A stretch of DNA of 64,000 nt from a virus: IMG/VR virus record IMGVR_UViG_3300042259_000159; one strand, written 5' to 3'. Both the position numbers and the translations under genes were made by a program. Position 1 is the first letter of the stretch. Each line of letters opens with the position of its first letter. Positions 48,849 to 64,000 of this stretch are shown here, piece after piece. The notes beneath the pieces are model-generated. The model ran no database searches. It was given only the letters and a program-made list of their open reading frames with translations, and was not told where the DNA came from.

Positions 48849-51800
48849 CTAAATGCTTTTATCTACAAACTTTCTCTGTGGAAAATCAAATTCCCGCCTT
48901 GTTTTATTCCAAGCTTTTACGGGTGTAAAAAACCCAACAACCCTTGTCAGCTGTGTACTTATATCTTCCGAACATATGGGGCATGTACTGAAGGAACCCA
49001 TAGAGACATGGGAGTTGATACACTCAGAGTATACGGTATTAATGGCAAAATGTTCACATCCACAACCCAAAGCAAAACAGATAATTTTCTTGGCCTGCTC
49101 TCTTGTCAGCCTCTGCCCGACAGTGGCATGAACAATCCCCCCGCCTGTTAGGTTTTTAGTATATTCTCCGTCAATTCTGAGCCTGTCCCACAGAGATGCC
49201 TCTTCCCACAAAGGAACAAACTGGTTTGCATAGAGAGGGTATTCTATAAAAGTATCGCCGTGAATGATCTTATCTGCGCTGCAAACTTTTACAGCCATAC
49301 TCTCTGCTGGGATTTGCTCAATGTTGAAGACATATCCTGCGTTCTTCTTGGTATACAATCTAGCTTTTCTGTTAAGAAATGTCAAGATCTTTTTCTTCAA
49401 ATCCCCCTCAACACCGAACCTTTGTTTAAGAACCTTTTCACACTCGTAAAGACCAAGAATACCAAACGTTGAAAAGAGCCTGTTGAGGTCTATCCACCCA
49501 CGCGTTATAAAAGGCTGAAGACCTATTTGTTCAAGGACATGAATCAAGACCTTATGAGCAATCAGAATATCTTTAGCAGCCTCTACACGGTACGTGTATA
49601 TTTTCCAAAAATCATCAATACTCTCGGCCTCAATTGCCATCTTGTTGAAATTAAGAGTAACAACTCTATGGCTCCCGATGCTGGAAAGAACACCGGCACC
49701 GAAAGAATTGGAGGTGGATGCCACATCTAACATCTCTTCATCATTGATCAATCGGCAACAGCTAGCGATCTTTGTGCTCTCAGATGTGAAAATATTGTAG
49801 CGCGAAATGTCTCTATTAAGAAATATTTCCAAACTCTCTTCGTCTGCAAGGATGTAATCATCGCCGTCCTTAGTTTTTGAAATGTTCATCGTGCAAACAG
49901 GGAACCTGTAAGGCATCCCGTTATTTGAGGGATCTCCTTTATCAAAGATGTCTAGGAATATTTCCTGCAATTCAAAAACATAGTCAACACACTCTTCTAT
50001 ATCTACAACACCACCATCTGAAAACATCCACAAAAGATGTTCCTTTATGATGTACCTGAGTTTGTGTTTATCAAACACCGATACATTGGTAAAGGGACTC
50101 TCAACTCCGTCACGACTCAAATGGTTTACGCTGTGAATAAGCTGTTGAAACTCGTTTTCTATCTCTTTCCTCACAGCCTTATCGTTTTTAAGCACATCAA
50201 GGGGAACCTTATTCTTTATCATGAGAAGGTGAGCAACATCTATAAATACAGTACCTATGGCTAGAGCACCAGCAACATGCGATGACATTTGGTGGATTGT
50301 CTCACACAGGGCGGCAATATAACTATTAACTCTTTTTGCCGGTTTAGAGGGCAATACTCCAAAAGTTCTTCCTTCTGTAATGAGATTTGTTGCGTTTAAA
50401 GAATAACAATTATGTTGCACCATTCCGTTTGCATAAAAACGGCCCGTTGCTGTTGTCAAATCATATACGTCTTGAAGCTCCTCTCTAAGCTTTCTTGTAC
50501 TAGGAATGTCTTCAAGATTAAACCTGATGATTTTTACAACCCTGTTGCTTTCGCCCTTGGTGTTTGCTTTTTCATTATACTTATCATAGTCTTCTTTATG
50601 CATCTTCATCTTATCAGAAAGATCAACCATCTTATTCGTACTTGACGGGACAAAGGAAAGGGCATAAATCGAATTAGAAATATCACTCCCTTTTATCCTT
50701 TTTCTAAGGCATCGAATACCTTCAATGCCTCTAAGGACGTCATAAAGTGTGTTTATTACTGCCATAGACTGCAAACAAATCTCCACCCTGCCATTCTTTT
50801 TGTAGGTATATCCGTCCGCGTCTACAAGCCCCGCAACAAGTGCCTCTACAGAATCATTTGTCCAAGAGAGGATGTTCTTAGGAAGAACCTTTGTGAAGCT
50901 ATTTTCTTTGTTCCCGAAACCAAAAAAGGCACTTACAAGAAAATTCATATCATAAGAAGACCAATTAATCTGTCTCTCGACTTTATCACTGGGCTTAAAA
51001 AGATTCGCATCAGGAAACAAGTCTTTTATGATACTATAAATTCTTGAGTTATCAATATCGTTTTGATAAACACTGCAAAGCGTTCCCCCTCTTGTAAATC
51101 TGAAAGAGCCTTTTATGTCCTTACCGTTCATTACGCCATCATCAACACAATACCCTTCAAAGTTCCCATCACCAAGCATAAAGCCAAGAAGGTAGGCCAG
51201 CTTTTCTGGAACAATTATTGTTTTTTCCACGGAGGGCAAACAAGTCTCTGTCAAAACAGCATCCCCAACAGAAAGTTCTGAGGCTATTTTTTCAGTTCCA
51301 TCTTCCATATAGATTGGGTGGTTGTCTGTTACCAAAGCAAAGTGCCCTGCCTCTGTCTGATACAAAGAGAATCCTGTATCCGTTTTATGCTTGATAATAC
51401 GTTGTACAGCAACCCATCCATTGTTTGTATCCCAAACCTCTATATTAACTTTTTCACTCACATTGCAGGCCAACTTACCGGAACGACCTTTTGCGGTGTT
51501 CTTGTTAGTGATGTTCGCACTCACATTATTACGCAGCATTGCTGTTGTAATCTCTAGATCTCTTGTAAGGCCTTTTGTGTTAATTTCCTCATGCGTACCC
51601 CTATTTTCGGAGTGTATTGCAAACATATTGAAAAGCTTTTTAAGAGGAATACAAATAATCTCTCCGTTAATTCTGACAAAAACAGGCGTGTTTCCATAAT
51701 ACGAATATGGAAGGTTTAGCTTCGTGCTGTCGGAGATGGGAAGACTGAAATCCAACATTTCTCCTATAAGCCTTTTAGCCCTCTTCTTGCCGTAGAGTTC

Positions 51801-52184
51801 CTTCATAACACGGTAGAGGAAATCGTACCCTGCAATTTTTTTCTGGGGGGCACTTGCCTCACTCTGTATTCCGGCAATTGTCTTCTCATTCTTATTAGCA
51901 TTGTCATCAATAGAGACATCATTAATGTTTGCATTTAATTGTTTTTGAAACATCTTGAGAAAGTCTGTATTGTCCTGCGAAAGACCATGCAGACGCATAA
52001 GTTTTTCAGCTTTTGTATCAATCTCTTCTTGAGAAAGGGTTGTTTTACGAGAAAGATTCCTTTTCAAAGCCTTAAGCATCTGTTTCCGTGTGTATTCAAT
52101 CTCAGCATCATTTGTAAAAGATGAAGAAAAACCTTTAGCTATGCTATTCAAAGCAGTAAACTCCTTCTTTTGTAAGTTTAACAT
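48849..52184 (-). CDS. nrdD: anaerobic ribonucleoside-triphosphate reductase (class III), intein-containing
   Basis: C-terminal CPICS Zn site and glycyl-radical region TRVVGFFTPVKAWN. Likely start MLNLQKKEF at 52184, overlapping the nrdG 3' end. A 432-aa insert carries intein blocks. Confidence 0.8.
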   Translation of the reverse strand: MLNLQKKEFTALNSIAKGFSSSFTNDAEIEYTRKQMLKALKRNLSRKTTLSQEEIDTKAEKLMRLHGLSQDNTDFLKMFQKQLNANINDVSIDDNANKNEKTIAGIQSEASAPQKKIAGYDFLYRVMKELYGKKRAKRLIGEMLDFSLPISDSTKLNLPYSYYGNTPVFVRINGEIICIPLKKLFNMFAIHSENRGTHEEINTKGLTRDLEITTAMLRNNVSANITNKNTAKGRSGKLACNVSEKVNIEVWDTNNGWVAVQRIIKHKTDTGFSLYQTEAGHFALVTDNHPIYMEDGTEKIASELSVGDAVLTETCLPSVEKTIIVPEKLAYLLGFMLGDGNFEGYCVDDGVMNGKDIKGSFRFTRGGTLCSVYQNDIDNSRIYSIIKDLFPDANLFKPSDKVERQINWSSYDMNFLVSAFFGFGNKENSFTKVLPKNILSWTNDSVEALVAGLVDADGYTYKKNGRVEICLQSMAVINTLYDVLRGIEGIRCLRKRIKGSDISNSIYALSFVPSSTNKMVDLSDKMKMHKEDYDKYNEKANTKGESNRVVKIIRFNLEDIPSTRKLREELQDVYDLTTATGRFYANGMVQHNCYSLNATNLITEGRTFGVLPSKPAKRVNSYIAALCETIHQMSSHVAGALAIGTVFIDVAHLLMIKNKVPLDVLKNDKAVRKEIENEFQQLIHSVNHLSRDGVESPFTNVSVFDKHKLRYIIKEHLLWMFSDGGVVDIEECVDYVFELQEIFLDIFDKGDPSNNGMPYRFPVCTMNISKTKDGDDYILADEESLEIFLNRDISRYNIFTSESTKIASCCRLINDEEMLDVASTSNSFGAGVLSSIGSHRVVTLNFNKMAIEAESIDDFWKIYTYRVEAAKDILIAHKVLIHVLEQIGLQPFITRGWIDLNRLFSTFGILGLYECEKVLKQRFGVEGDLKKKILTFLNRKARLYTKKNAGYVFNIEQIPAESMAVKVCSADKIIHGDTFIEYPLYANQFVPLWEEASLWDRLRIDGEYTKNLTGGGIVHATVGQRLTREQAKKIICFALGCGCEHFAINTVYSECINSHVSMGSFSTCPICSEDISTQLTRVVGFFTPVKAWNKTRREFDFPQRKFVDKSI
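50409..51704 (-). mobile_element. intein with LAGLIDADG homing endonuclease domain inside NrdD
   Basis: Block A SYYGNTPVFV (Ser1), block B LVTDNHPIY, LAGLIDADG motifs LAYLLGFMLGDGNF and LVAGLVDADGYTY, C-terminal FYANGMVQHN followed by extein Cys (CYSLN). Confidence 0.8.
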
Positions 52185-52659
52185 AATTATTATTATAAAG
52201 TTCTTGGTTAGACGAACCAAGTACGAGTTTTGTCCTTTGCCCTTTTGTTGTATCTGACTGGTGCAGTTCTTTTATATACTCTCCTGTTTTTATAAATTTG
52301 AAACCGTTAAGATTAAGGTATTTAACAGTGTCAATATCGTATCCAGTATAAATACATATGTTAAAACACCCACCGTATTGTTCTAAGAACTGTGCTGTAA
52401 ACCCTCTGTTGCAGGAGGCTAGCGGATCTCCACCAAGAAGTACAATATTATTTGTGCGGTATTTTAAGGTCTCCTGTTTACAATGGTTGTAGAAGTCTTC
52501 AATGGAAAATTCCACACCACCCTGATATTCAGGGTTTTGCAGGGAGGGGTTATGACACCCCTTACAGGAAAAATCACACCCACACATAAAAAGACTTACT
52601 GCCCACCCATCCTTTGAGGGGTAGTCTGTAAATGTCATCTCAGAACCTGCAAATCTCAT
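52144..52659 (-). CDS. nrdG: anaerobic RNR activating enzyme (radical SAM)
   Basis: CGCDFSCKGCHNP (CxxxCxxC cluster). Confidence 0.8.
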   Translation of the reverse strand: MRFAGSEMTFTDYPSKDGWAVSLFMCGCDFSCKGCHNPSLQNPEYQGGVEFSIEDFYNHCKQETLKYRTNNIVLLGGDPLASCNRGFTAQFLEQYGGCFNICIYTGYDIDTVKYLNLNGFKFIKTGEYIKELHQSDTTKGQRTKLVLGSSNQELYNNNYVKLTKEGVYCFE

Positions 52660-53604: not shown

Positions 53605-54579
53605 TTAGCGGCAAAAATAAATGTCTGGTGAGAAGGTTAGAAGATCTTTTGTATGCACTGAGTATGAGATATCGTTCAAATCCTGTGCTTCGTGTAAAAT
53701 ATCAAACACAAGGAACCCGAAATCTACTGTTCCAGAACATTTCCTCTCTCCGAAAATTGTCTTTGGACCTTGAAGAGATGGACAAGACATCGCCATATAT
53801 TTTGTTGTACTGTTTGCAATGTGGTAGTGAACATGCCCACGGAGAATTACATCGCTTTTAGGCTGCATCTTTTTCTCTTCCCATAGGCGATTCCAGACAT
53901 ATTCTTTCGAAAGCTGTGTTGCCCTCCCGTGAGGGATTCCACTACTTCCAATGGCATGTCTGAGGTCAAAAAGAATCCCATTAATATCTACCCACAACCT
54001 ACCATCAAAAATAGCACCTATCTCTTTAGCTAGAACCTCTTCAAAATCCTCACCACCGGCATATGTATGGTAACCTGTCCCACCAACTAGAAAAATATTC
54101 TTACACGGGATTGAATCGAAGACTTGAACAGCTATATCTACTTGCTCGTTGAGGGATGAGGTTATCAGTCCATTTCCACCATCCTTAGATGCCTTGCCAT
54201 CAATTGCATCGCCTATGTGAAAAAGTGCATCGATATGGCCTAAGGATGAAACCCCTGTAGAGAAAAAGTCCCACATCTCTTCTTGCATAGAGGCAATCTT
54301 CTTTCTTTCCTCTTTGCTTCCTCCTTGAACGTTAAACATCCAGTCTGGAGGTGTCAAACCAACCTTACTTCCGCAGTGGGTATCCGAGATAACCAAAACC
54401 CTTGAGAAATCCCTTTTACACCTTTCCTCCTCTTTTTCCCACTTTGTGAGACCCTTATACTTATCCTTAAGAAAGTCGTGAACAGAAGATTTTGGAACCC
54501 CTGTTGCGGCAGAAATCTGCCTTATAGACTTCCCAGCCTTTTGCATTATAAGAGCAACCTCTTTCTGATATTCCTCCAT
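53605..54579 (-). CDS. calcineurin-like metallophosphoesterase with N-terminal HTH
   Basis: VISDTHCG, IGDAIDG, RGHVHYH. N-terminal GKSIRQISAATGVPKSSVHDFL. Confidence 0.6.
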   Translation of the reverse strand: MEEYQKEVALIMQKAGKSIRQISAATGVPKSSVHDFLKDKYKGLTKWEKEEERCKRDFSRVLVISDTHCGSKVGLTPPDWMFNVQGGSKEERKKIASMQEEMWDFFSTGVSSLGHIDALFHIGDAIDGKASKDGGNGLITSSLNEQVDIAVQVFDSIPCKNIFLVGGTGYHTYAGGEDFEEVLAKEIGAIFDGRLWVDINGILFDLRHAIGSSGIPHGRATQLSKEYVWNRLWEEKKMQPKSDVILRGHVHYHIANSTTKYMAMSCPSLQGPKTIFGERKCSGTVDFGFLVFDILHEAQDLNDISYSVHTKDLLTFSPDIYFCR

Positions 54580-54616
54580 CTAACCTCCTTTACTCCTGTT
54601 TTTGGGAATAGAAATA

Positions 54617-54646
54617 TGGTACTGGCAGCGGGATTCGAACCCACAC
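54617..54646 (-). tRNA. orphan tRNA 3' fragment (T-arm, acceptor 3' strand, CCA)
   Basis: Minus strand reads GTGGGTTCGAATCCCGCTGCCAGTACCA with no upstream D or anticodon arms. Its acceptor strand complements the 5' acceptor ACTGGTA at 55323..55317. Confidence 0.6.
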
Positions 54647-54658
54647 TGAAGGGGGGAT

Positions 54659-55108
54659 TTACTTATCTCTCTGGTAGTAGTGCTTTGATATTGCACTTCT
54701 TTCCATTTTTTGAATTTTTTTATTCTGAACGTCGGACCCATAACGTCCAGAACACGTTCTGGAACAAAAGGGCCCAGCTTTATTTTTAATGTTTCTCTGT
54801 GTCACCGTTGGCGTAAAAAGAGAATCGCAATATGGACACTTTACTTCTTCCACTCTCACCCTTACCACATCAAGCGAAGCATGGGAGGATCTACACAAAA
54901 CTTGTAAATTTTCAATTTTGTTGTTCAGTGGATTTCTATCAATGTGGTCAACTGTCTCAGATGGATCTAAAACTCTGCCCAGATGCACTTCCATTATAAT
55001 TCTGGAAGCCTGTTTAGCAGTTCTTTTAATTCCATCATATAAAACAATGACCAGTCTACCGTCTTTCCTTAAATATGGCCCATAAATTTTTTTACACTCT
55101 GGGTACAA
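54659..55108 (-). CDS. HNH homing endonuclease
   Basis: VDHIDRNPLNNKIENLQVLCRSSHA plus C-terminal CPYC...CSRTC. The track ORF extends to 55192 but overlaps tRNA-Leu; a TTG at 55108 is proposed as the start. Confidence 0.65.
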   Translation of the reverse strand: MYPECKKIYGPYLRKDGRLVIVLYDGIKRTAKQASRIIMEVHLGRVLDPSETVDHIDRNPLNNKIENLQVLCRSSHASLDVVRVRVEEVKCPYCDSLFTPTVTQRNIKNKAGPFCSRTCSGRYGSDVQNKKIQKMERSAISKHYYQRDK

Positions 55109-55122
55109 TTTTTGAATGTGTT

Positions 55123-55206
55123 TGGTAGGAGAAGAGAGATTCGAACTCTCAAGGAATAATCCGTCGAGGCTTAAACTCGATGTGTTTACCATTTCACCAT
55201 TCTCCC
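55123..55206 (-). tRNA. tRNA-Leu (anticodon UAA), type II with long variable arm, CCA encoded
   Basis: GGGAGAA/TTCTCCT acceptor, anticodon arm TCGAG-TTTAAGC-CTCGA, T-arm GAGAG-TTCGAAT-CTCTC. Confidence 0.75.
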
Positions 55207-55245
55207 GTATTTTTTATCTACCATTCCGCCATTCCCGCATTTATT

Positions 55246-55323
55246 TGGTACCCACTGTGAGATTCGAACCCACACTAATCAGTTTCTAAGACTGATGCCT
55301 CTGCCAAGTTGGGCTATACCAGT
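55246..55323 (-). tRNA. chimeric / possibly defective tRNA (anticodon UAG, short variable loop)
   Basis: Good D, anticodon (TCAGT-CTTAGAA-ACTGA) and T arms. However, 5' acceptor ACTGGTA pairs poorly with the local 3' strand AGTGGGT and well with TGCCAGT at 54617..54646. Confidence 0.45.
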
Positions 55324-55581
55324 ATTATGCTTATTATTTTATTTTGAAAGGCCATATGTATACACATATATATATATACATATATATATGTATAGAGCAA
55401 CCAAAATGGTTAAATAAAAAGGTGTTTTGTGGAGACACCAAACTCCTCCAGTTTTAGTGATCTGGAAACAATAAGCGGCGCAGGTGCTCTTTAAAACACG
55501 TGCTACCAAGCGTATAAATTGTCTAGGGGATTTCACCAAACACATTATGTTATTGGAGGGATCTTTCCCTAGACTCAGTAA

Positions 55582-55654
55582 AGCTCCTGACAGGACTTGA
55601 ACCCGCAACCGGCTGATTACAAATCAGCTGCTCTGCCAGTTGAGCTACAGGAGC
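55582..55654 (-). tRNA. tRNA-Thr (anticodon UGU), no encoded CCA
   Basis: GCTCCTG/CAGGAGC acceptor, GCTGA-TTTGTAA-TCAGC. Confidence 0.8.
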
Positions 55655-55658
55655 AGAA

Positions 55659-55730
55659 CAGAGGGAGAAGGATTCGAACCTTCGAATGACGGGACCAAAA
55701 CCCGTTGCCTTACCGCTTGGCTACCCCTCT
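55659..55730 (-). tRNA. tRNA-Gln (anticodon UUG), no encoded CCA
   Basis: ACGGG-TTTTGGT-CCCGT anticodon arm, T-arm GAAGG-TTCGAAT-CCTTC. Confidence 0.75.
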
Positions 55731-55738
55731 AAATTTTT

Positions 55739-55815
55739 TGGCTCCGGCGGCAGGATTTGAACCTACATTCGCAATGGTTAACAGCCATTTGCCTTACCAA
55801 TTCGGCGACACCGGA
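55739..55815 (-). tRNA. tRNA-Asn (anticodon GUU), CCA encoded
   Basis: AATGG-CTGTTAA-CCATT, TTCAAAT T-loop, acceptor TCCGGTG/CGCCGGA. Confidence 0.75.
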
Positions 55816-55860
55816 ATGAACTTTTTATTTGTTATCAGCATTGTTTTGCTTTATTTTAAA

Positions 55861-55939
55861 TGGTCTCGGTGATTAGATTTGAACTAATGATTATTCCTGC
55901 TCCCAAAGCAGGTGCCATACCAAGCTAGGCGACACCGAG
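55861..55939 (-). tRNA. tRNA-Pro (anticodon UGG), CCA encoded
   Basis: CCTGC-TTTGGGA-GCAGG, T-arm ATTAG-TTCAAAT-CTAAT, acceptor CTCGGTG/CACCGAG. The variable region is slightly long. Confidence 0.65.
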
Positions 55940-56293
55940 ATCAGGTGTGGTACCAAACTCCACTATGGGCAGAGGTTATAAGAAGGTCCGTACATGATAT
56001 AGACAGATATTCTTCCATAACAGCGGTACGGACGCTGTCTCATTTTTATATCTTTCAGTGTGCTATTACGCCAAAGGGAAATTAAGCCTTACCAGTTACG
56101 GGGTGCCCTTTTACTATCCACAAAGAATTTCAAATCGCGTGCATTCTAAGTATCGGAAAATTCTACAACCACTTAAAGTACACCTCGTTTAAGAGATAGC
56201 GACCTGTGCTTCGTCCCACTCTTTAAAGGATGGCTGCCTCAAAGCCCACCTCCTGAAAAATGCATGAAGGATTATCCCTCCTTCGCTAAATAC

Positions 56294-56322
56294 AACCTAT
56301 CAATTTTAAGGGTTCTTGTCAA
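56294..56322 (-). promoter_or_regulatory. sigma70-type promoter (TTGACA-N17-TAGGTT, then GTATTTAGC) facing the tRNA cluster
   Basis: The minus strand has the same architecture as the promoters at 26289 and 32237. Confidence 0.5.
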
Positions 56323-56423
56323 GAACATTTTAAGGTTTTTGAAATTTTTGTTGAACGCTGATTTGCTACGCGGGTACAGCGTTCGAAACCTCGATAGCAT
56401 CCTTGCCGTTGGCAAAGCTGTCA

Positions 56424-56505
56424 GGAGCCGCAGGAGGAGAATTGAACTCCTCTGGCATCAACACGCAGTCACCACAACTACATCTACCGTTACGGGTATG
56501 GCTCC
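56424..56505 (-). ncRNA. degenerate tRNA-like element
   Basis: GGAGCC/GGCTCC acceptor-like helix, hairpin GTAGT-TGTGGTG-ACTGC, perfect T-arm AGGAG-TTCAATT-CTCCT. It has extra nucleotides and a non-canonical anticodon loop. Confidence 0.3.
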
Positions 56506-56519
56506 CCATCCTAGTCACC

Positions 56520-56790
56520 TGTTGATACCTTATAGGTTCAGCCCTACCAAGGGCACTGCGGCTTAAGTGGGTTGGTTGGTGCAGATTGTGAACGTACCCC
56601 CGCCTATAGAGGCGGAAGCTTCCTGCTTCAGCGAGAACAGCACCAGTAACTCCGAAGAGTTGTGGCGAATTACACTCTCTCCACAGGCGTAAATTCCCGT
56701 GCGACCCACGGTACTTTATGAGTTACGCTAGGCAGATATTCGCCCAGCTTCTTCTCTAATATTTATTGCAGCGTTCTTGTCACGGTTATG
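56520..56790 (-). ncRNA. expected TnpB omega-RNA (reRNA) region
   Basis: Located by position at the 3' end of tnpB plus downstream sequence. Hairpins CCGTGGGTCGCACGG, ACTCttcgGAGT and CCGCCtctataGGCGGGGG are present; the exact ends are unknown. Confidence 0.3.
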
Positions 56791-57976
56791 ATGACTGCCA
56801 CACTTAAGGCAATCCCATTCCCGCACAGACAAGTCTTTGGTATCCTTGTTCTGGTAGCCACAGACATGGCATAGCTGACTGCTTGGATACCATTTGTCTA
56901 TCTTGATAAGTTGCTTACCCTGCCATGCAAGTTTGTATTTCAGCATACTTGTGAACATGCTCCAGCCGTTGTCGGATATGGATTTACCAAAGTTGAACTT
57001 GCCACCCTTCTTTCGCTTCGCCATGTCCTTTACGCTAATGTCCTCTATGCCAATCACATCATAGCGGTCTGCAAGATAACGAGCTTTCTTATGCAGGAAG
57101 TCGCGGCGTTGATTAGCAATTTTCTCATGGAGTACAGCCAAACGTAGTCTTTGTTTATTCCTATTACGGCTCCCTTTTTGTCTCTTGGAGAGTTTTCTTT
57201 GTGCCTTGATCAATCTCTTTTCGGCTTCCCGTAAGAAATTTGGATAATCGGCGTTGTCCTCATCGGAAGCAACATACATCCCGTGCATAGCAAAATCCAA
57301 TCCAAGAAAATTCTTCGGTATGATGGGAAGTATTTGGTTTTCATACTCCACCAAAATACTAATATAGTATTTTCCTGACGGTGTTTTACTTATGGTTACA
57401 GTCTTTATGGTGCTATTCTCCATCAATGGACGATGCAGACACAGCTTTACCCAACCTATTTTCGGCAGCTTGACTTTGTTTCCCTCGATTCTTACAGAGC
57501 CATGTTGGTTGTTCGTAGAATATGAAGCATGACCCGCTTTCTTCGACTTGAAGCGTGGCTTGCAAAAATGCTTCCTATTGCTCCAAAAGTTGTTATACGC
57601 CTTGTTCAGGTTTATTTGGGCATTGGCGAGAGCAAGGCTGTCAACCTCTTTCAGCCAAGGAAACTCTTTCTTGTACTGTGCAGGTGTGTTGTTCAGCCTC
57701 TCTCCTGTTTCCTTATAGTGATCAAGACGATCTCCAAGCATCTTGTTATAGATGAATCTGGCACTGCCGAAAGTCTTGGCAAACATAATCTTCTGTTCAA
57801 TTGTCGGGTAGAGTCTATATCGGTATGCCTTATTCACTATAATCACCTGCCTTGATTTTCTATGTATTTACGAATTGTCTCAAACGGAGCAATTATCTGG
57901 CTCAACTACTTACGTAAATTCGCTAGACACACCTTCATCCCCCACCTTAGAGGTGGAGGGCTTCTGGCGGGTTAGG
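56560..57976 (-). mobile_element. IS200/IS605-family TnpB-only element (boundaries approximate)
   Basis: tnpB is flanked by similar subterminal hairpins: LE CCCTCCACCtctaaGGTGGGGG (57939-57960) and RE CCGCCtctataGGCGGGGG (56597-56614). No tnpA is present. Confidence 0.55.
56728..57846 (-). CDS. tnpB: TnpB (OrfB_IS605) RNA-guided nuclease
   Basis: N-terminus AYRYRLYPTIEQKIMFAKTFGSARFIYN. RuvC-like GLDFAM / IGIEDISVKDM / RDKNAAINI. Zn-ribbon CHVCGY...CLKCGSHHNRD. Confidence 0.9.
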   Translation of the reverse strand: MIIVNKAYRYRLYPTIEQKIMFAKTFGSARFIYNKMLGDRLDHYKETGERLNNTPAQYKKEFPWLKEVDSLALANAQINLNKAYNNFWSNRKHFCKPRFKSKKAGHASYSTNNQHGSVRIEGNKVKLPKIGWVKLCLHRPLMENSTIKTVTISKTPSGKYYISILVEYENQILPIIPKNFLGLDFAMHGMYVASDEDNADYPNFLREAEKRLIKAQRKLSKRQKGSRNRNKQRLRLAVLHEKIANQRRDFLHKKARYLADRYDVIGIEDISVKDMAKRKKGGKFNFGKSISDNGWSMFTSMLKYKLAWQGKQLIKIDKWYPSSQLCHVCGYQNKDTKDLSVREWDCLKCGSHHNRDKNAAINIREEAGRISA

Positions 57977-58013
57977 TTAAATCCCTTGTGTCTACTAATT
58001 CCACCAATCGGGC
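57977..58013 (-). pseudogene. truncated tRNA-Leu(UAA) 5' half ending at the anticodon (..AAGGGATTTAA)
   Basis: GCCCGATTGGTGGAATTAGTAGACACAAGGGATTTAA, then unrelated sequence (the IS left end). It duplicates the 5' half and upstream spacer of the tRNA at 58023..58109. Confidence 0.7.
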
Positions 58014-58022
58014 TAAAATCTT

Positions 58023-58109
58023 TGGTGCCCAATGCAGGACTCGAACCTGCACGCCATTTCAGGCAGGAGGGCTTAAACCTCGTGTGTCTACCAATTCCAC
58101 CAATCGGGC
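58023..58109 (-). tRNA. tRNA-Leu (anticodon UAA), type II, CCA encoded
   Basis: Close to E. coli leuZ-type layout: GCCCGAT..GTGGAATTGGTAGACAC..TTTAAGC..TGCAGGTTCGAGTCCTGCATTGGGCACCA. Confidence 0.8.
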
Positions 58110-58118
58110 TAAAATCTT

Positions 58119-58202
58119 TGGTGCCTCAGACAGGATTCGAACCTGCACGGATCTCTCCACTTGGTCCTAAGCCAAGCGTGTCTGCCATTCCACCACTGAG
58201 GC
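58119..58202 (-). tRNA. tRNA-Leu (anticodon UAG), type II, CCA encoded
   Basis: GCCTCAG acceptor, CTTGG-CTTAGGA-CCAAG, long variable arm, GCAGGTTCGAATCCTGT. Confidence 0.8.
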
Positions 58203-58260
58203 TGAAATTTTAATTAAAGTTTGACATACTCCCCACGGATAAATCCGGGGGATTCTGGAT

Positions 58261-58413
58261 TCAAACAGCAACGGCGGGTGCAAGCACCCTTCTGTCTGTC
58301 ATTGAGGCAGTCGCCTTAGAACCAGCCGCTGCACCGAACTCGCTACCGCTGGGCGCTCTGCAAGAACACACTCCCAGATATGTATGCCAATAGCAATTTT
58401 TGTCATGTTTCAT
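58261..58413 (-). CDS. small Cys-rich protein (50 aa)
   Basis: ATG after GGAGGTAAAC; below the track cut-off. Confidence 0.35.
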   Translation of the reverse strand: MKHDKNCYWHTYLGVCSCRAPSGSEFGAAAGSKATASMTDRRVLAPAVAV

Positions 58414-58443
58414 GTTTACCTCCGCTCGCAGGTGAGCTATTCG

Positions 58444-58596
58444 TTATATGTCGTAAAATTCATGGCTCGTGTATTTGCACGGGATTACCCCATGCAAAAC
58501 GTGCAGGAAGGCAAGCACAGCCTGACGCACGGCCTCCCTTAATGCCTTTTTTGCTACGGCAAAATTCGCCATCATGTGCTTAAAATAGATCATCAT
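58444..58596 (-). CDS. small protein homologous to the N-terminus of 25794..26186
   Basis: HVLHGVIPCKYTSHEFY compared with HALHGIIPCKYTSHDYW; weak RBS. Confidence 0.3.
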   Translation of the reverse strand: MMIYFKHMMANFAVAKKALREAVRQAVLAFLHVLHGVIPCKYTSHEFYDI

Positions 58597-58646
58597 ATAA
58601 CCAGTCAATCAACCGGATTTGCTATGCTCTCCGGTTATTTCGGTCG

Positions 58647-59057
58647 TTAGCCTTCCATCGCCAGCTTGATTGCCCGGCGAACTTTCCCAAAATCGTGAAT
58701 CGAAAACAGGCATCCGCCGAAATTATACCGGCAGACCATCTCCGCATCCAGCCAGCGCAACACCTCCAGCATTTCAGGGGCGGCTGCAATAAGTTTGGCG
58801 TTGGCCTCCATGATTGGCACGCGTCCTTGCACGCCACGGGCAGAGGTTGCACATACCGGGTTGCCGTTGCAATCCTCTACTATCAACCGGCCTTTTCGGT
58901 CCGGCACAACTCCGGCAGTAACCGACCACGGGCCGGGACTATGCACAGGATAATCTTCCCTGTTGTAGGCTGTTTTCCCATCCGTTATAATTGTCGGCGT
59001 TTCGCTATCTTTGCAAACCTTTCCCCGATATGTATTTCCGTCACCGTAGCTATTCAT
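58647..59057 (-). CDS. hypothetical protein
   Basis: Contains EANAKLIAAAPEMLEVL, a motif I recall from many phage and prophage hypothetical proteins. Confidence 0.5.
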   Translation of the reverse strand: MNSYGDGNTYRGKVCKDSETPTIITDGKTAYNREDYPVHSPGPWSVTAGVVPDRKGRLIVEDCNGNPVCATSARGVQGRVPIMEANAKLIAAAPEMLEVLRWLDAEMVCRYNFGGCLFSIHDFGKVRRAIKLAMEG

Positions 59058-63082: not shown

Positions 63083-63368
63083 AACATTTTGGGTGCCGCA
63101 GGTTCGGGAAAGTCATACATAATGAATATGATACCTTTGAGGTATGTCGATTGCCCCAACTTTAGGGGGATTGTCTTCCGAAGGGAAACGACACAGCTTA
63201 CAGGTGAAGGGGGGATGTGGGATACAGCAACGGAGATATACTCTGAGCTGCCTAAAAATATCAGGCCCAAAATATTGAAACATAACCTGAGAATGATTTT
63301 TCCGAATGGGGCAAAAATTAAGTTTTCACACATGGAAAATGATAATGATTTCAGGAAACATCAAGGGT
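63083..63368 (+). CDS. terL: terminase large subunit, exon 2 (Walker A)
   Basis: NILGAAGSGKSYIMN...GIVFRRETTQL...KFSHMENDNDFRKHQG. Confidence 0.7.
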
Positions 63369-63622
63369 TAATTAGTAGCCCCTTGTGTTGGTGACAGCGC
63401 AAGCAAACTAACCTAATTCGGTGGAAGCCCAAACATGTAGGATGTGGGTGATACCGAGCAAGCCACGGCGTGTGTAACGACTAGTTCTTAGGAACGTAGG
63501 CCCAAGCGGGTCGAAACGGTTAGCATCTTATTAAGATGAAGATATAGTCTACTCTGCATGGAAACATGCAGCGGACACTTTATGTGTCGGGCAGATGTTA
63601 GCGCCATCTGTTGAATATTATG
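63369..63622 (+). ncRNA. group I intron 2 in terL (ORF-less, approx 254 nt)
   Basis: GTAACGACTAGTTC...GAAGATATAGTCTAC (compare canonical AGATATAGTC), CTGCATGgaaaCATGCAG, CAGATG..CATCTG. U before the 5' junction and G before the 3' junction. Confidence 0.65.
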
Positions 63623-63739
63623 TACAATATACCCTGATATGCTTTGATGAGGCAACACATTTCACTTTCCAACAAGTTGAATACTTAATGTCACGTATGA
63701 GAAGTAAAAGTAAGTATGCTTCTCGTATGGTTCTGTCGT
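63623..63739 (+). CDS. terL: terminase large subunit, exon 3 (Walker B)
   Basis: (L)QYTLICFDEATHFTFQQVEYLMSRMRSKSKYASRMVLS; the 3' end is approximate. Confidence 0.65.
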
Positions 63740-64000
63740 GGATTACGCGACATGTATGGCGAAAGCTGTACTGGCAACTGTGTGAACTCAGGGAAACCTT
63801 AGCTGCTGCAATTGGGCAGAGGAAGAAGGCAATCCTGAGCGAAGCCTTCCCACCGGGAAGGAACGTGCAACGACCATCGAAAGCGTAACACCTGTTACAG
63901 TGAGTAGAGTACACCACACATGTGTGGTGGAAGCGCACAGCCCCTAACATGTAACGATGAGGGTGAAGATATGGTCTGAACCTACAGAAATGTAGAAAAA
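63740..64000 (+). ncRNA. group I intron 3 in terL (runs off right edge)
   Basis: CAACGACCATCG...GAAGATATGGTCTGA, with GACCA/TGGTC replacing the GACTA/TAGTC of introns 1 and 2. Hairpin CCTACAgaaaTGTAG(G). Confidence 0.55.

Follow-up and report, generated by a model that had tools for sequence, protein, structure and literature searches.

How does a phage tRNA gene come to be cut off exactly at its anticodon, with the gene of a transposon nuclease next to it? This arrangement lies in the tRNA cluster of the IMG/VR virus record IMGVR_UViG_3300042259_000159, of which the full 64,000-nt stretch was analysed (the window; all strands and coordinates below are window positions unless a contig is named). 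A preliminary description had seen here a TnpB-only IS200/IS605 element abutting a duplicated tRNA-Leu(UAA) 5' half, with TTTAA in the anticodon loop as its probable target, and had suggested that a phage-borne RNA-guided nuclease wired to tRNA genes could act in homing or in competition between phages. Is the break in the tRNA the insertion site of the element? Where is the missing 3' half? And is the nuclease aimed at tRNA genes at all? The answer that we regard as very probable is that a non-autonomous, host-derived insertion sequence (IS) of the IS200/IS605 family entered the anticodon loop of a phage tRNA-Leu(UAA) gene, and that the window carries a rearranged descendant of this insertion.

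On the minus strand, the order is tRNA-Leu(UAG), a 9-nt spacer, an intact tRNA-Leu(UAA) (copy a), the same spacer, the 5' half of a second tRNA-Leu(UAA) (half b, of copy b) and a 1389-bp insert. Beyond the insert, about 650 nt without a convincing open reading frame (ORF) are followed by tRNA-Pro, Asn, Gln, Thr and two more Leu tRNAs. The features at the break, where TAM stands for target-adjacent motif, are:

58119-58202, minus strand: tRNA-Leu(UAG), first of the local Leu tandem (found by ARAGORN; Rfam tRNA model, 58.4 bits)
58023-58109, minus strand: intact tRNA-Leu(UAA), copy a, an unoccupied target (found by ARAGORN; Rfam, 48.2 bits)
57977-58013, minus strand: orphan 5' half of the second tRNA-Leu(UAA), copy b, 37 nt, GCCCGATTGGTGGAATTAGTAGACACAAGGGATTTAA, ending in GGGATTTAA
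57977-57981, minus strand: TTTAA, insertion target and presumed TAM of TnpB, kept in 40-42 of 44 distinct left flanks
56588-57976, minus strand: the whole IS200/IS605-family element, 1389 bp, non-autonomous, with tnpA deleted; ends set from 44 copies
57939-57960, minus strand: left-end subterminal hairpin, CCCTCCACCtctaaGGTGGGGG, conserved in all copies compared
56728-57846, minus strand: tnpB, a full-length ORF of 372 aa from the GTG at 57846 (369-aa relatives start at the GTG at 57837)

What sets the limits of the element? Its ends were extracted from 66 genome loci, which came down to 44 distinct insertions. The left flanks of these are mutually unrelated and share their final five bases (T in 41, T in 42, T in 40, A in 42 and A in 42, that is TTTAA), which run straight into a conserved left end, CCTAAYCCGCC / CCTAAYCCGCCAGAAG. 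About 40 copies have GTTCAC as the last bases of their right end (...GGCGGGGGTACGTTCAC), beyond which the flanks diverge. With left flanks closing in TTTAA and right ends closing in GTTCAC, the element is therefore window 57976-56588, and the tRNA break coincides to the base with its left end. Both subterminal hairpins are conserved in the 44 copies. The left one begins 16 nt after the tRNA half (fold z = -2.0); the right one, CCGCCtctataGGCGG, lies at 56618-56597 on the minus strand, 112 nt beyond the tnpB stop, with a fold z of -3.8 that none of 200 shuffles equals, and shows compensatory changes among the copies. There are no terminal inverted repeats. By the rule established for the IS200/IS605 family, TTTAA is presumed to be also the TAM of this TnpB.

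The protein itself carries three Pfam domains (HTH_OrfB_IS605, OrfB_IS605 and Cas12f1-like_TNB), and its best natural relative in the PDB is ISDra2 TnpB (8H1J/8EXA, E 2e-79). The RuvC motifs are intact (GLD(184)F, GIE(268)DI and NRD(356)KNAA, with the triad D184, E268 and D356), and so are the two CxxC pairs of the zinc ribbon (C326/C329 and C346/C349). A Y1 (HUH) transposase, TnpA, is absent from the window element and present in close bacterial relatives. The element is an IS200/IS605 member, an IS1341-like non-autonomous derivative, ordinary in every testable respect save the absence of tnpA; many other TnpB-only copies are non-autonomous too. The window holds neither a second IS copy nor solo IS ends, and a promoter and terminator scan gave nothing above chance. 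The anatomy given in the preliminary description has thus held up well: every sequence feature that it listed is in place, the TnpB-only assignment and the intact catalytic and zinc-binding residues among them, its two hairpins are the subterminal left-end and right-end structures, and its choice of TTTAA as the target is borne out by the flanks.

Could the broken tRNA be a product of assembly? The region is identical at 100% in four independent JGI assemblies (L001-L004) and is therefore no assembly artefact. Half b differs from copy a at four of 37 positions, namely G18A and three changes in the anticodon stem (CGAGG to AGGGA), and is therefore no mis-join of reads from an occupied and an empty site. 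On these two grounds an assembly chimera is ruled out. The spacer AAAGATTTTAG precedes copy b as it does copy a, with 9 nt separating the two. The last 19 nt of half b, GTAGACACAAGGGATTTAA, are those of a canonical bacterial tRNA-Leu(UAA), with at least 120 exact matches in each of two collections, and half b is not a drifting duplicate of copy a. G18A falls in the conserved GG of the D-loop, much as would be expected for a dead fragment. TTTAA makes up bases 33-37 of the 37-nt half and the anticodon TAA bases 35-37.

The simple insertion itself is seen in sister phages. One of them, L074 (IMGVR_UViG_3300036466_000329), was found by a walk from a neighbouring gene, and L088-L093 come from the 90%-identity cluster of a 324-aa neighbour protein, the relatives of which above 90% identity are confined to this one small cluster. 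(Relatives of a 136-aa neighbour gene have no tRNA cluster at that place.) In L074 the 1389-bp element lies between ...ACACGAGGTTTAA and GCCCTCCTGCCTGAAATGGCGTGCAGGTTCGAGTCCTGCATTGGGCACCA, as 5' half, IS and 3' half, and the junctions read ...CGAGGTTTAA|IS|GCCCTCCTGCC...GGGCACCA. Joined together, the two halves are copy a of the window (58109-58023) base for base, without a duplicated base, and this is therefore a simple insertion in the anticodon loop without target duplication, as the preliminary description had supposed. The contig of L088 begins inside the right end of the IS and runs into the tRNA 3' half, and the site is occupied; in L089 the same tRNA is uninterrupted, which supplies the empty site that had been wanted from related phages. 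The IS thus inserts 3' of a fixed motif, in one orientation, the halves of L074 and the empty site of L089 rejoining exactly. Downstream, L088 and L089 differ at one of 9000 positions; the presence or absence of the IS in the tRNA is therefore a polymorphism of very recent date within one phage type. In both L088 and L089 the second tRNA-Leu pair is missing altogether. Exact-pattern scans of IMG/VR for the right flank, the spacer, the long half b and the intact copy a junction found only this phage and L074, and the spacer pattern had no match in the JGI metagenome set.

Where does the IS come from? An autonomous relative is found in Phascolarctobacterium succinatutens (L005, DMNY01000023), with a Y1 TnpA gene (PF01797) directly 5' of tnpB. 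By blastn the window copy is that element minus about 406 bp holding tnpA (L005 2555-2960), with 94-96% identity at both ends. The two have the same ends and the same TTTAA target; the autonomous IS has its own tnpA and sits at chromosomal non-tRNA sites, whereas the window element is without tnpA and within a tRNA gene. Identity to the Phascolarctobacterium copies (L005, also L006-L011, L036 and L044) is 93-96% at the nucleotide level over the shared 1389 bp, and the closest copy in a bacterial genome, at 95.7%, is again from Phascolarctobacterium. TnpB relatives number thousands. The closest ones (94-96% amino acid identity) are likewise from Phascolarctobacterium, and relatives from Megasphaera, Mitsuokella, Selenomonas and Pectinatus stand at 83-87%. 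From this match to bacterial copies, Phascolarctobacterium-type Negativicutes are the likely hosts of the phage. The tnpA deletion is shared by the window and L074; the 29 other copies compared, 28 of them from the genome scan and one from a metagenome contig, do not have it. Together with the 98.1% identity of the two phage elements, this private deletion is given as support for their origin in a single acquisition.

The family is not confined to tRNA genes. None of the 44 bacterial flanks is a tRNA, and about 44 bacterial and about 10 other viral insertions occupy TTTAA sites outside tRNAs. Among the TnpB relatives, P0115 and P0055, on long contigs, are bacterial chromosomal insertions, P0068 (L362) is on an unclassified 2.7-kb contig with tnpA and small ORFs, and P0007 is in a further phage-like context, outside a tRNA. 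The IS family, again without tnpA, is also found at one identical TTTAA site in the viral contigs L344, L359, L360 and L361, which come from different samples; these IMG/VR contigs are of 15.8-235 kb (three of 147-235 kb and one of 15.8 kb) and have no tRNA near the IS. In Logan, L363/L364 show the IS in another phage-like contig, adjoining a GP88-family gene. Judged by this repeated presence in other phage contigs, the invasion of Negativicutes phages by the IS is recurrent.

Why, then, a tRNA gene here? The window has 212 TTTAA sites, only two of them within tRNA genes, and both of these are tRNA-Leu(UAA) anticodon loops. L088 has no intact tRNA-Leu(UAA) in the part of the genome on its 12.4-kb contig, which suggests that the gene is dispensable to the phage. 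The location is best explained by these two facts, the TTTAA contained in any tRNA-Leu(UAA) with U32 and the dispensability of the gene. We infer the following history. An autonomous IS of Phascolarctobacterium-type Negativicutes would have been the source, with tnpA deleted afterwards; a host TnpA acting in trans would have placed the derivative 3' of TTTAA in the anticodon loop of a dispensable tRNA-Leu(UAA), co-oriented with the tRNA cluster; and a later rearrangement would have left the window with copy a intact upstream, half b orphaned, and the 3' half and its flank deleted at the right end.

What happened at the right end? After GTTCAC the window has no tRNA 3' half and reads instead AATCTGCACCAACCAACCCA. 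The missing half was sought downstream of the right end (56587-55940), and no complement to the T-arm or the acceptor was found there. In the sisters, AATCTGCACCAACCAACCCA lies further downstream of the tRNA, at 371 nt in L074, where CTCAA precedes it, and at about 600 nt in L088/L089, where CTTAA does, and the window junction falls exactly after these five bases. By this comparison copy b has lost its 3' half together with the 0.3-0.5 kb beyond it, and the break lies exactly at the right end. Three routes could be envisaged. In one, the IS would have inserted again at a (C/T)TTAA site, and the two copies, lying in the same orientation, would then have recombined. In another, the right end would have been joined to such a site downstream in a TnpA-type reaction. 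The third is a deletion through the 4-nt microhomology AATC. A transposase-type event or a recombination between IS copies at a downstream (C/T)TTAA seems most likely. The segment lost in the window also varies between the sisters (L074 5357-5677; L088 137-676), with a 71-aa ORF in L088/L089 and not in L074, and a 13-nt indel separates them at the junction that immediately precedes (A/G)TCTGCACC; this variable segment may be a hot spot of recombination or insertion.

The loss bears directly on the guide of the putative omega-RNA, the features of which are:

56588-56760, minus strand: omega-RNA scaffold region (uncertain at its 5' limit), which takes in the right-end hairpin (56618-56597) and ends with GTTCAC
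56568-56587, minus strand: omega-RNA guide position of the window, AATCTGCACCAACCAACCCA, native phage intergenic DNA that matches no tRNA

An RNAalifold alignment of the scaffold from 44 copies has 36 pairs, of which 18 show compensatory changes, and the window copy keeps its stems intact; part of this covariation signal is also explained by the right-end DNA hairpin. On the scaffold, Rfam gave only RAGATH-18, below threshold (27 bits against a cut-off of 44.9), a motif that represents the guide RNA of IS607 TnpBs (PMC11061315). The conserved scaffold supports a putative omega-RNA encoded by the element. At the guide position, L074 and L088 have GCCCTCCTGCCTGAAATGGC, the tRNA 3' half, which in copy a of the window (58072-58053) directly follows TTTAA (58077-58073). 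The TTTAA-flanked target of the sister guide is present in L089 and occurs once in the window, in copy a (58077-58053). The window's own guide finds no such site in the sisters: the places homologous to it have CTTAA or CTCAA and one to three guide mismatches, and the joint lacking the IS would read TTTAA+AATCTGCACC, present only after excision. Near-identical occupied and empty genomes in which the target is the empty allele are found for the sisters and not for the guide of the window. As in ISDra2, TnpB and omega-RNA would cut the TAM-flanked joint without the element, and the IS would be kept or spread by recombination; in the sisters this joint is an intact tRNA gene, and in the window it would be TTTAA+AATCTGCACC, so that the copy would guard its own site only. 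The proposed targeting of the tRNA would fit the sister phages, in which the guide position is tRNA sequence, and does not fit the window copy; as a property of the element, being wired to tRNA genes is contradicted by the many insertions at non-tRNA TTTAA sites. Homing or competition is plausible for the sister phages, judging by their guides. It is speculative that the right-end deletion removes self-targeting in a phage that has an intact copy a and a tRNA-directed guide.

How far can homing carry the explanation? One could see in this locus a natural RNA-guided gene drive on phage tRNA-Leu(UAA), with TnpB and omega-RNA retained as a phage weapon to cut this gene in co-infecting relatives, for homing or exclusion, and with the window as its outcome, the tRNA regained and the guide re-set to non-tRNA DNA. 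The tRNA-derived guide of L074 and L088, the perfect TTTAA and target in L089 and in copy a, and occupied and empty genomes only 1/9000 nt apart all speak for it, and there are precedents, since non-restorative transposon homing into co-infecting phages has been discussed and T4 SegB provides a protein example in a tRNA cluster (PMC13565253). However, the guide position of the window matches no tRNA, and in place of the required TTTAA the sister counterparts of that guide carry CTTAA or CTCAA. Copies of this IS are found at unrelated sites in bacteria and in other phages, and a single recent TnpA-mediated insertion or a precise excision would account for the polymorphism just as well. The ratio of nonsynonymous to synonymous divergence is also near neutral, and altogether we hold this reading possible, on the unlikely side. 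The same ratio favours the opposite view, in which a decaying, inactive IS is tolerated in a redundant tRNA gene and TnpB and omega-RNA have no role. Window and L074 elements differ at 27 positions, and the codon changes in tnpB are 12 nonsynonymous and five synonymous, close to neutral on these small numbers; the decaying passenger is therefore kept as a live rival. The loss of tnpA and the G18A in the adjacent tRNA half agree with it. Yet the ORF is full length in both phages with every catalytic and zinc-binding residue kept, the omega-RNA stems are intact in the window copy, and the very recent occupied/empty polymorphism points to current mobility of the lineage, all of which makes a mere passenger unlikely. 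Two further readings concern the tRNA rather than the nuclease. Canonical tRNA-Leu(UAA) sequence is found at or near the ends of many viral contigs, and the partial tRNA might be the duplicated part of an attachment site, left by integrase-mediated recombination, that lies beside the IS by coincidence. Attachment-site duplications keep the 3' part of the tRNA, but the part kept here is the 5' half; the break falls on the very base at which the 44 IS copies start; L074 has both halves around the IS; and no integrase is nearby. The 44-copy boundary and the two halves in L074 contradict this remnant outright, and we give it almost no weight. An intron-like element, either an IStron or a group I intron, that is spliced out to leave a functional tRNA is just as improbable. 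The classic cyanobacterial group I intron does sit in the same tRNA-Leu(UAA) gene and loop, group I introns abound in this phage lineage, and IStrons combine IS605 ends with a ribozyme (PMC13565253). But over the aligned segments the insert shares 96% identity with an ordinary bacterial IS without a ribozyme, the window lacks a 3' exon, and no match to the group I intron model was found in 54500-59000 at E up to 1, though that model does detect introns in L074 and in other parts of the window; a group I intron or IStron was rejected on this account.

The preferred reading, a host-derived IS that inserted in the anticodon loop and was then rearranged, has its own difficulties. The deletion at the right end could equally be an AATC microhomology event: a canonical b-type tRNA continues AATCCCT after TTTAA, and the window reads AATC|TGCACC after the right end. 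No ancestor with copies a and b in tandem or with two IS copies was found in any collection scanned. The 12 nonsynonymous changes against five synonymous ones suggest relaxed constraint, and the nuclease may be decaying. Finally, the same IS derivative abuts copy a in L074 but copy b in the window. Different alleles beside the same IS cannot be the product of homologous exchange outside the 5-nt TTTAA, and this implies, as far as the alleles can tell, either two transpositions into the same loop or a recombinant history that has not been sampled.

How does the locus compare with known systems? ISDra2 resembles it in the domain order and sequence of TnpB, in the subterminal left and right hairpins, in insertion 3' of a pentanucleotide that doubles as TAM (TTGAT in ISDra2), and in an omega-RNA, putative here, that runs from the 3' end of tnpB through the right end and takes its guide from the flank. 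Here, the target and presumed TAM is TTTAA, tnpA is deleted and a helper is needed, and the site is a tRNA gene of a virulent-type phage genome. IS608 of Helicobacter pylori, which targets TTAC and is the model of Y1 single-strand transposition, likewise has no terminal inverted repeats, duplicates no target and keeps a fixed orientation to its motif, and its precise excision is possible, which would yield an empty allele of the L089 type; IS608 has its own TnpA, and the window element has none. Cyanobacterial and plastid group I introns interrupt the same tRNA-Leu(UAA) gene in the same loop, as self-splicing ribozymes within the anticodon, whereas the present insert follows the anticodon, has no ribozyme and inactivates the gene. 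Closer in lifestyle are the free-standing homing endonucleases such as T4 SegB, which acts on the phage tRNA cluster, a selfish nuclease within it that cuts in a tRNA of relatives lacking the nuclease; a 2026 review treats transposon homing into co-infecting phages as a category (PMC13565253). SegB reads DNA by protein contacts, whereas specificity here would come from a guide RNA copied from the flank, and the guide of the window is a non-tRNA sequence. Cyanophage A-1(L) carries a tnpB identical to that of the host, which close relatives of the phage lack (bioRxiv 10.64898/2026.02.14.705889), in that case outside a tRNA gene, and the ends, TAM and empty site are not reported there. In the open-access literature we found no report that places an IS605/TnpB element in the anticodon loop of a phage tRNA, and none of phage alleles with and without the insertion in which the guide derives from a tRNA.

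What makes the locus worth pursuing? Laboratory work has demonstrated TnpB-assisted homing for bacterial chromosomes; what part it plays in nature, and between viruses, is for the most part conjectural. This lineage offers a natural test case for RNA-guided homing between viruses, with a defined (presumed) TAM, TTTAA, and exact ends, a sister guide that is the tRNA 3' half, an empty allele at 1/9000 divergence and a window variant with a re-set guide. The window alone is ordinary, an IS insertion and then a deletion; the value lies in the natural polymorphism and in the re-set guide. The element also points to Phascolarctobacterium-type Negativicutes as the probable host of an otherwise unclassified gut phage of about 117 kb. 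Phage tRNA genes would be good landing pads, as tRNA-Leu(UAA) with U32 contains TTTAA and the gene appears to be dispensable to the phage.

Two items downstream of the element come into question as remnants of the split tRNA, a degenerate tRNA-like element (56424-56505) and an anticodon-stem piece, AATTTCCCTTT (56085-56075). Neither belongs to it. The former is at the same place in sisters that have their own 3' half (L088) or an uninterrupted tRNA (L089), and the latter is also at the homologous place in L088, L089 and L090; both are conserved phage sequence outside the IS and the split tRNA. The tRNA-like element (56505-56424, minus strand) is identical in L074, L088 and L089 whatever the state of the IS. 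It resembles a cloverleaf: the acceptor stem has 7 bp and the T-arm a UUCAAUU loop, but the 'anticodon' loop has 5 nt and the D-arm is tiny. Its fold z is -3.0, and neither ARAGORN nor the Rfam tRNA model (E up to 1) calls it. A conserved non-coding stretch of about 300 nt without an Rfam match precedes it.

In the same region, at 56252-56205 (minus strand; also L088 1010-1057), lies a look-alike of about 50 nt of the GTPase-associated centre of 23S rRNA (helices 43-44, the L11/thiostrepton site), GGCTTTGAGGCAGCCATCCTTTAAAGAGTGGGACGAAGCA. It matches positions 1097-1144 of the Rfam model LSU_rRNA_bacteria with 26.7 bits (gathering score 50; E 2e-5); an Rfam rescan limited to 55930-56600 gave no match, though the wider scan had given this fragment. 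INPHARED holds no close relatives of the phage, and its sole match is a 45-56 nt rRNA-like piece. Unannotated copies with 82-96% identity are present in about eight unrelated Pseudomonas, Xanthomonas, Aeromonas and Paenibacillus phages: within a tRNA cluster in L333 (UNO-G1W1) and L334 (pf16), about 260 nt from tRNA-Met in L336 (Aeromonas phage 4_4572) and beside a 2'-5' RNA ligase gene in L335 (XacN1). The helix 43 half is nearly invariant, and the helix 44 half is conserved among the phages and unlike rRNA. The searchable literature has no description of a phage rRNA look-alike of this kind, which may be a phage-encoded rRNA mimic or decoy.

Other mobile elements are close by. A cassette inside the tRNA cluster (54645-55489, minus strand) combines an HNH_3 endonuclease gene (54659-55108/55192) with two Leu tRNAs, a UAA at 55123-55206 and a weak 69-nt 'UAG' at 55246-55314. 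It is absent from L088, L089, L090, L091 and L093 and partly present in L074, and it looks like a free-standing homing endonuclease with tRNA cargo. At the end of the window there are two group I introns (63359-63571 and 63728-63997, plus strand; 76 and 77 bits), and the homologous part of L074 (246-2101, minus strand) has three above threshold (71-93 bits) and a borderline one (49.0 bits; gathering score 50). The anaerobic ribonucleotide reductase NrdD (48849-52220, minus strand) is of 1123 aa in the window, with an intein-splicing match of 30.3 bits, below the cut-off of 35.8, and of 1449 aa in L088/L089, with weak intein-splicing and faint LAGLIDADG matches. ThyX has 205 aa in the window; in L093 it contains an intein and has 457 aa. 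With the IS, the introns, the inteins and the HNH gene, the lineage is unusually rich in selfish elements.

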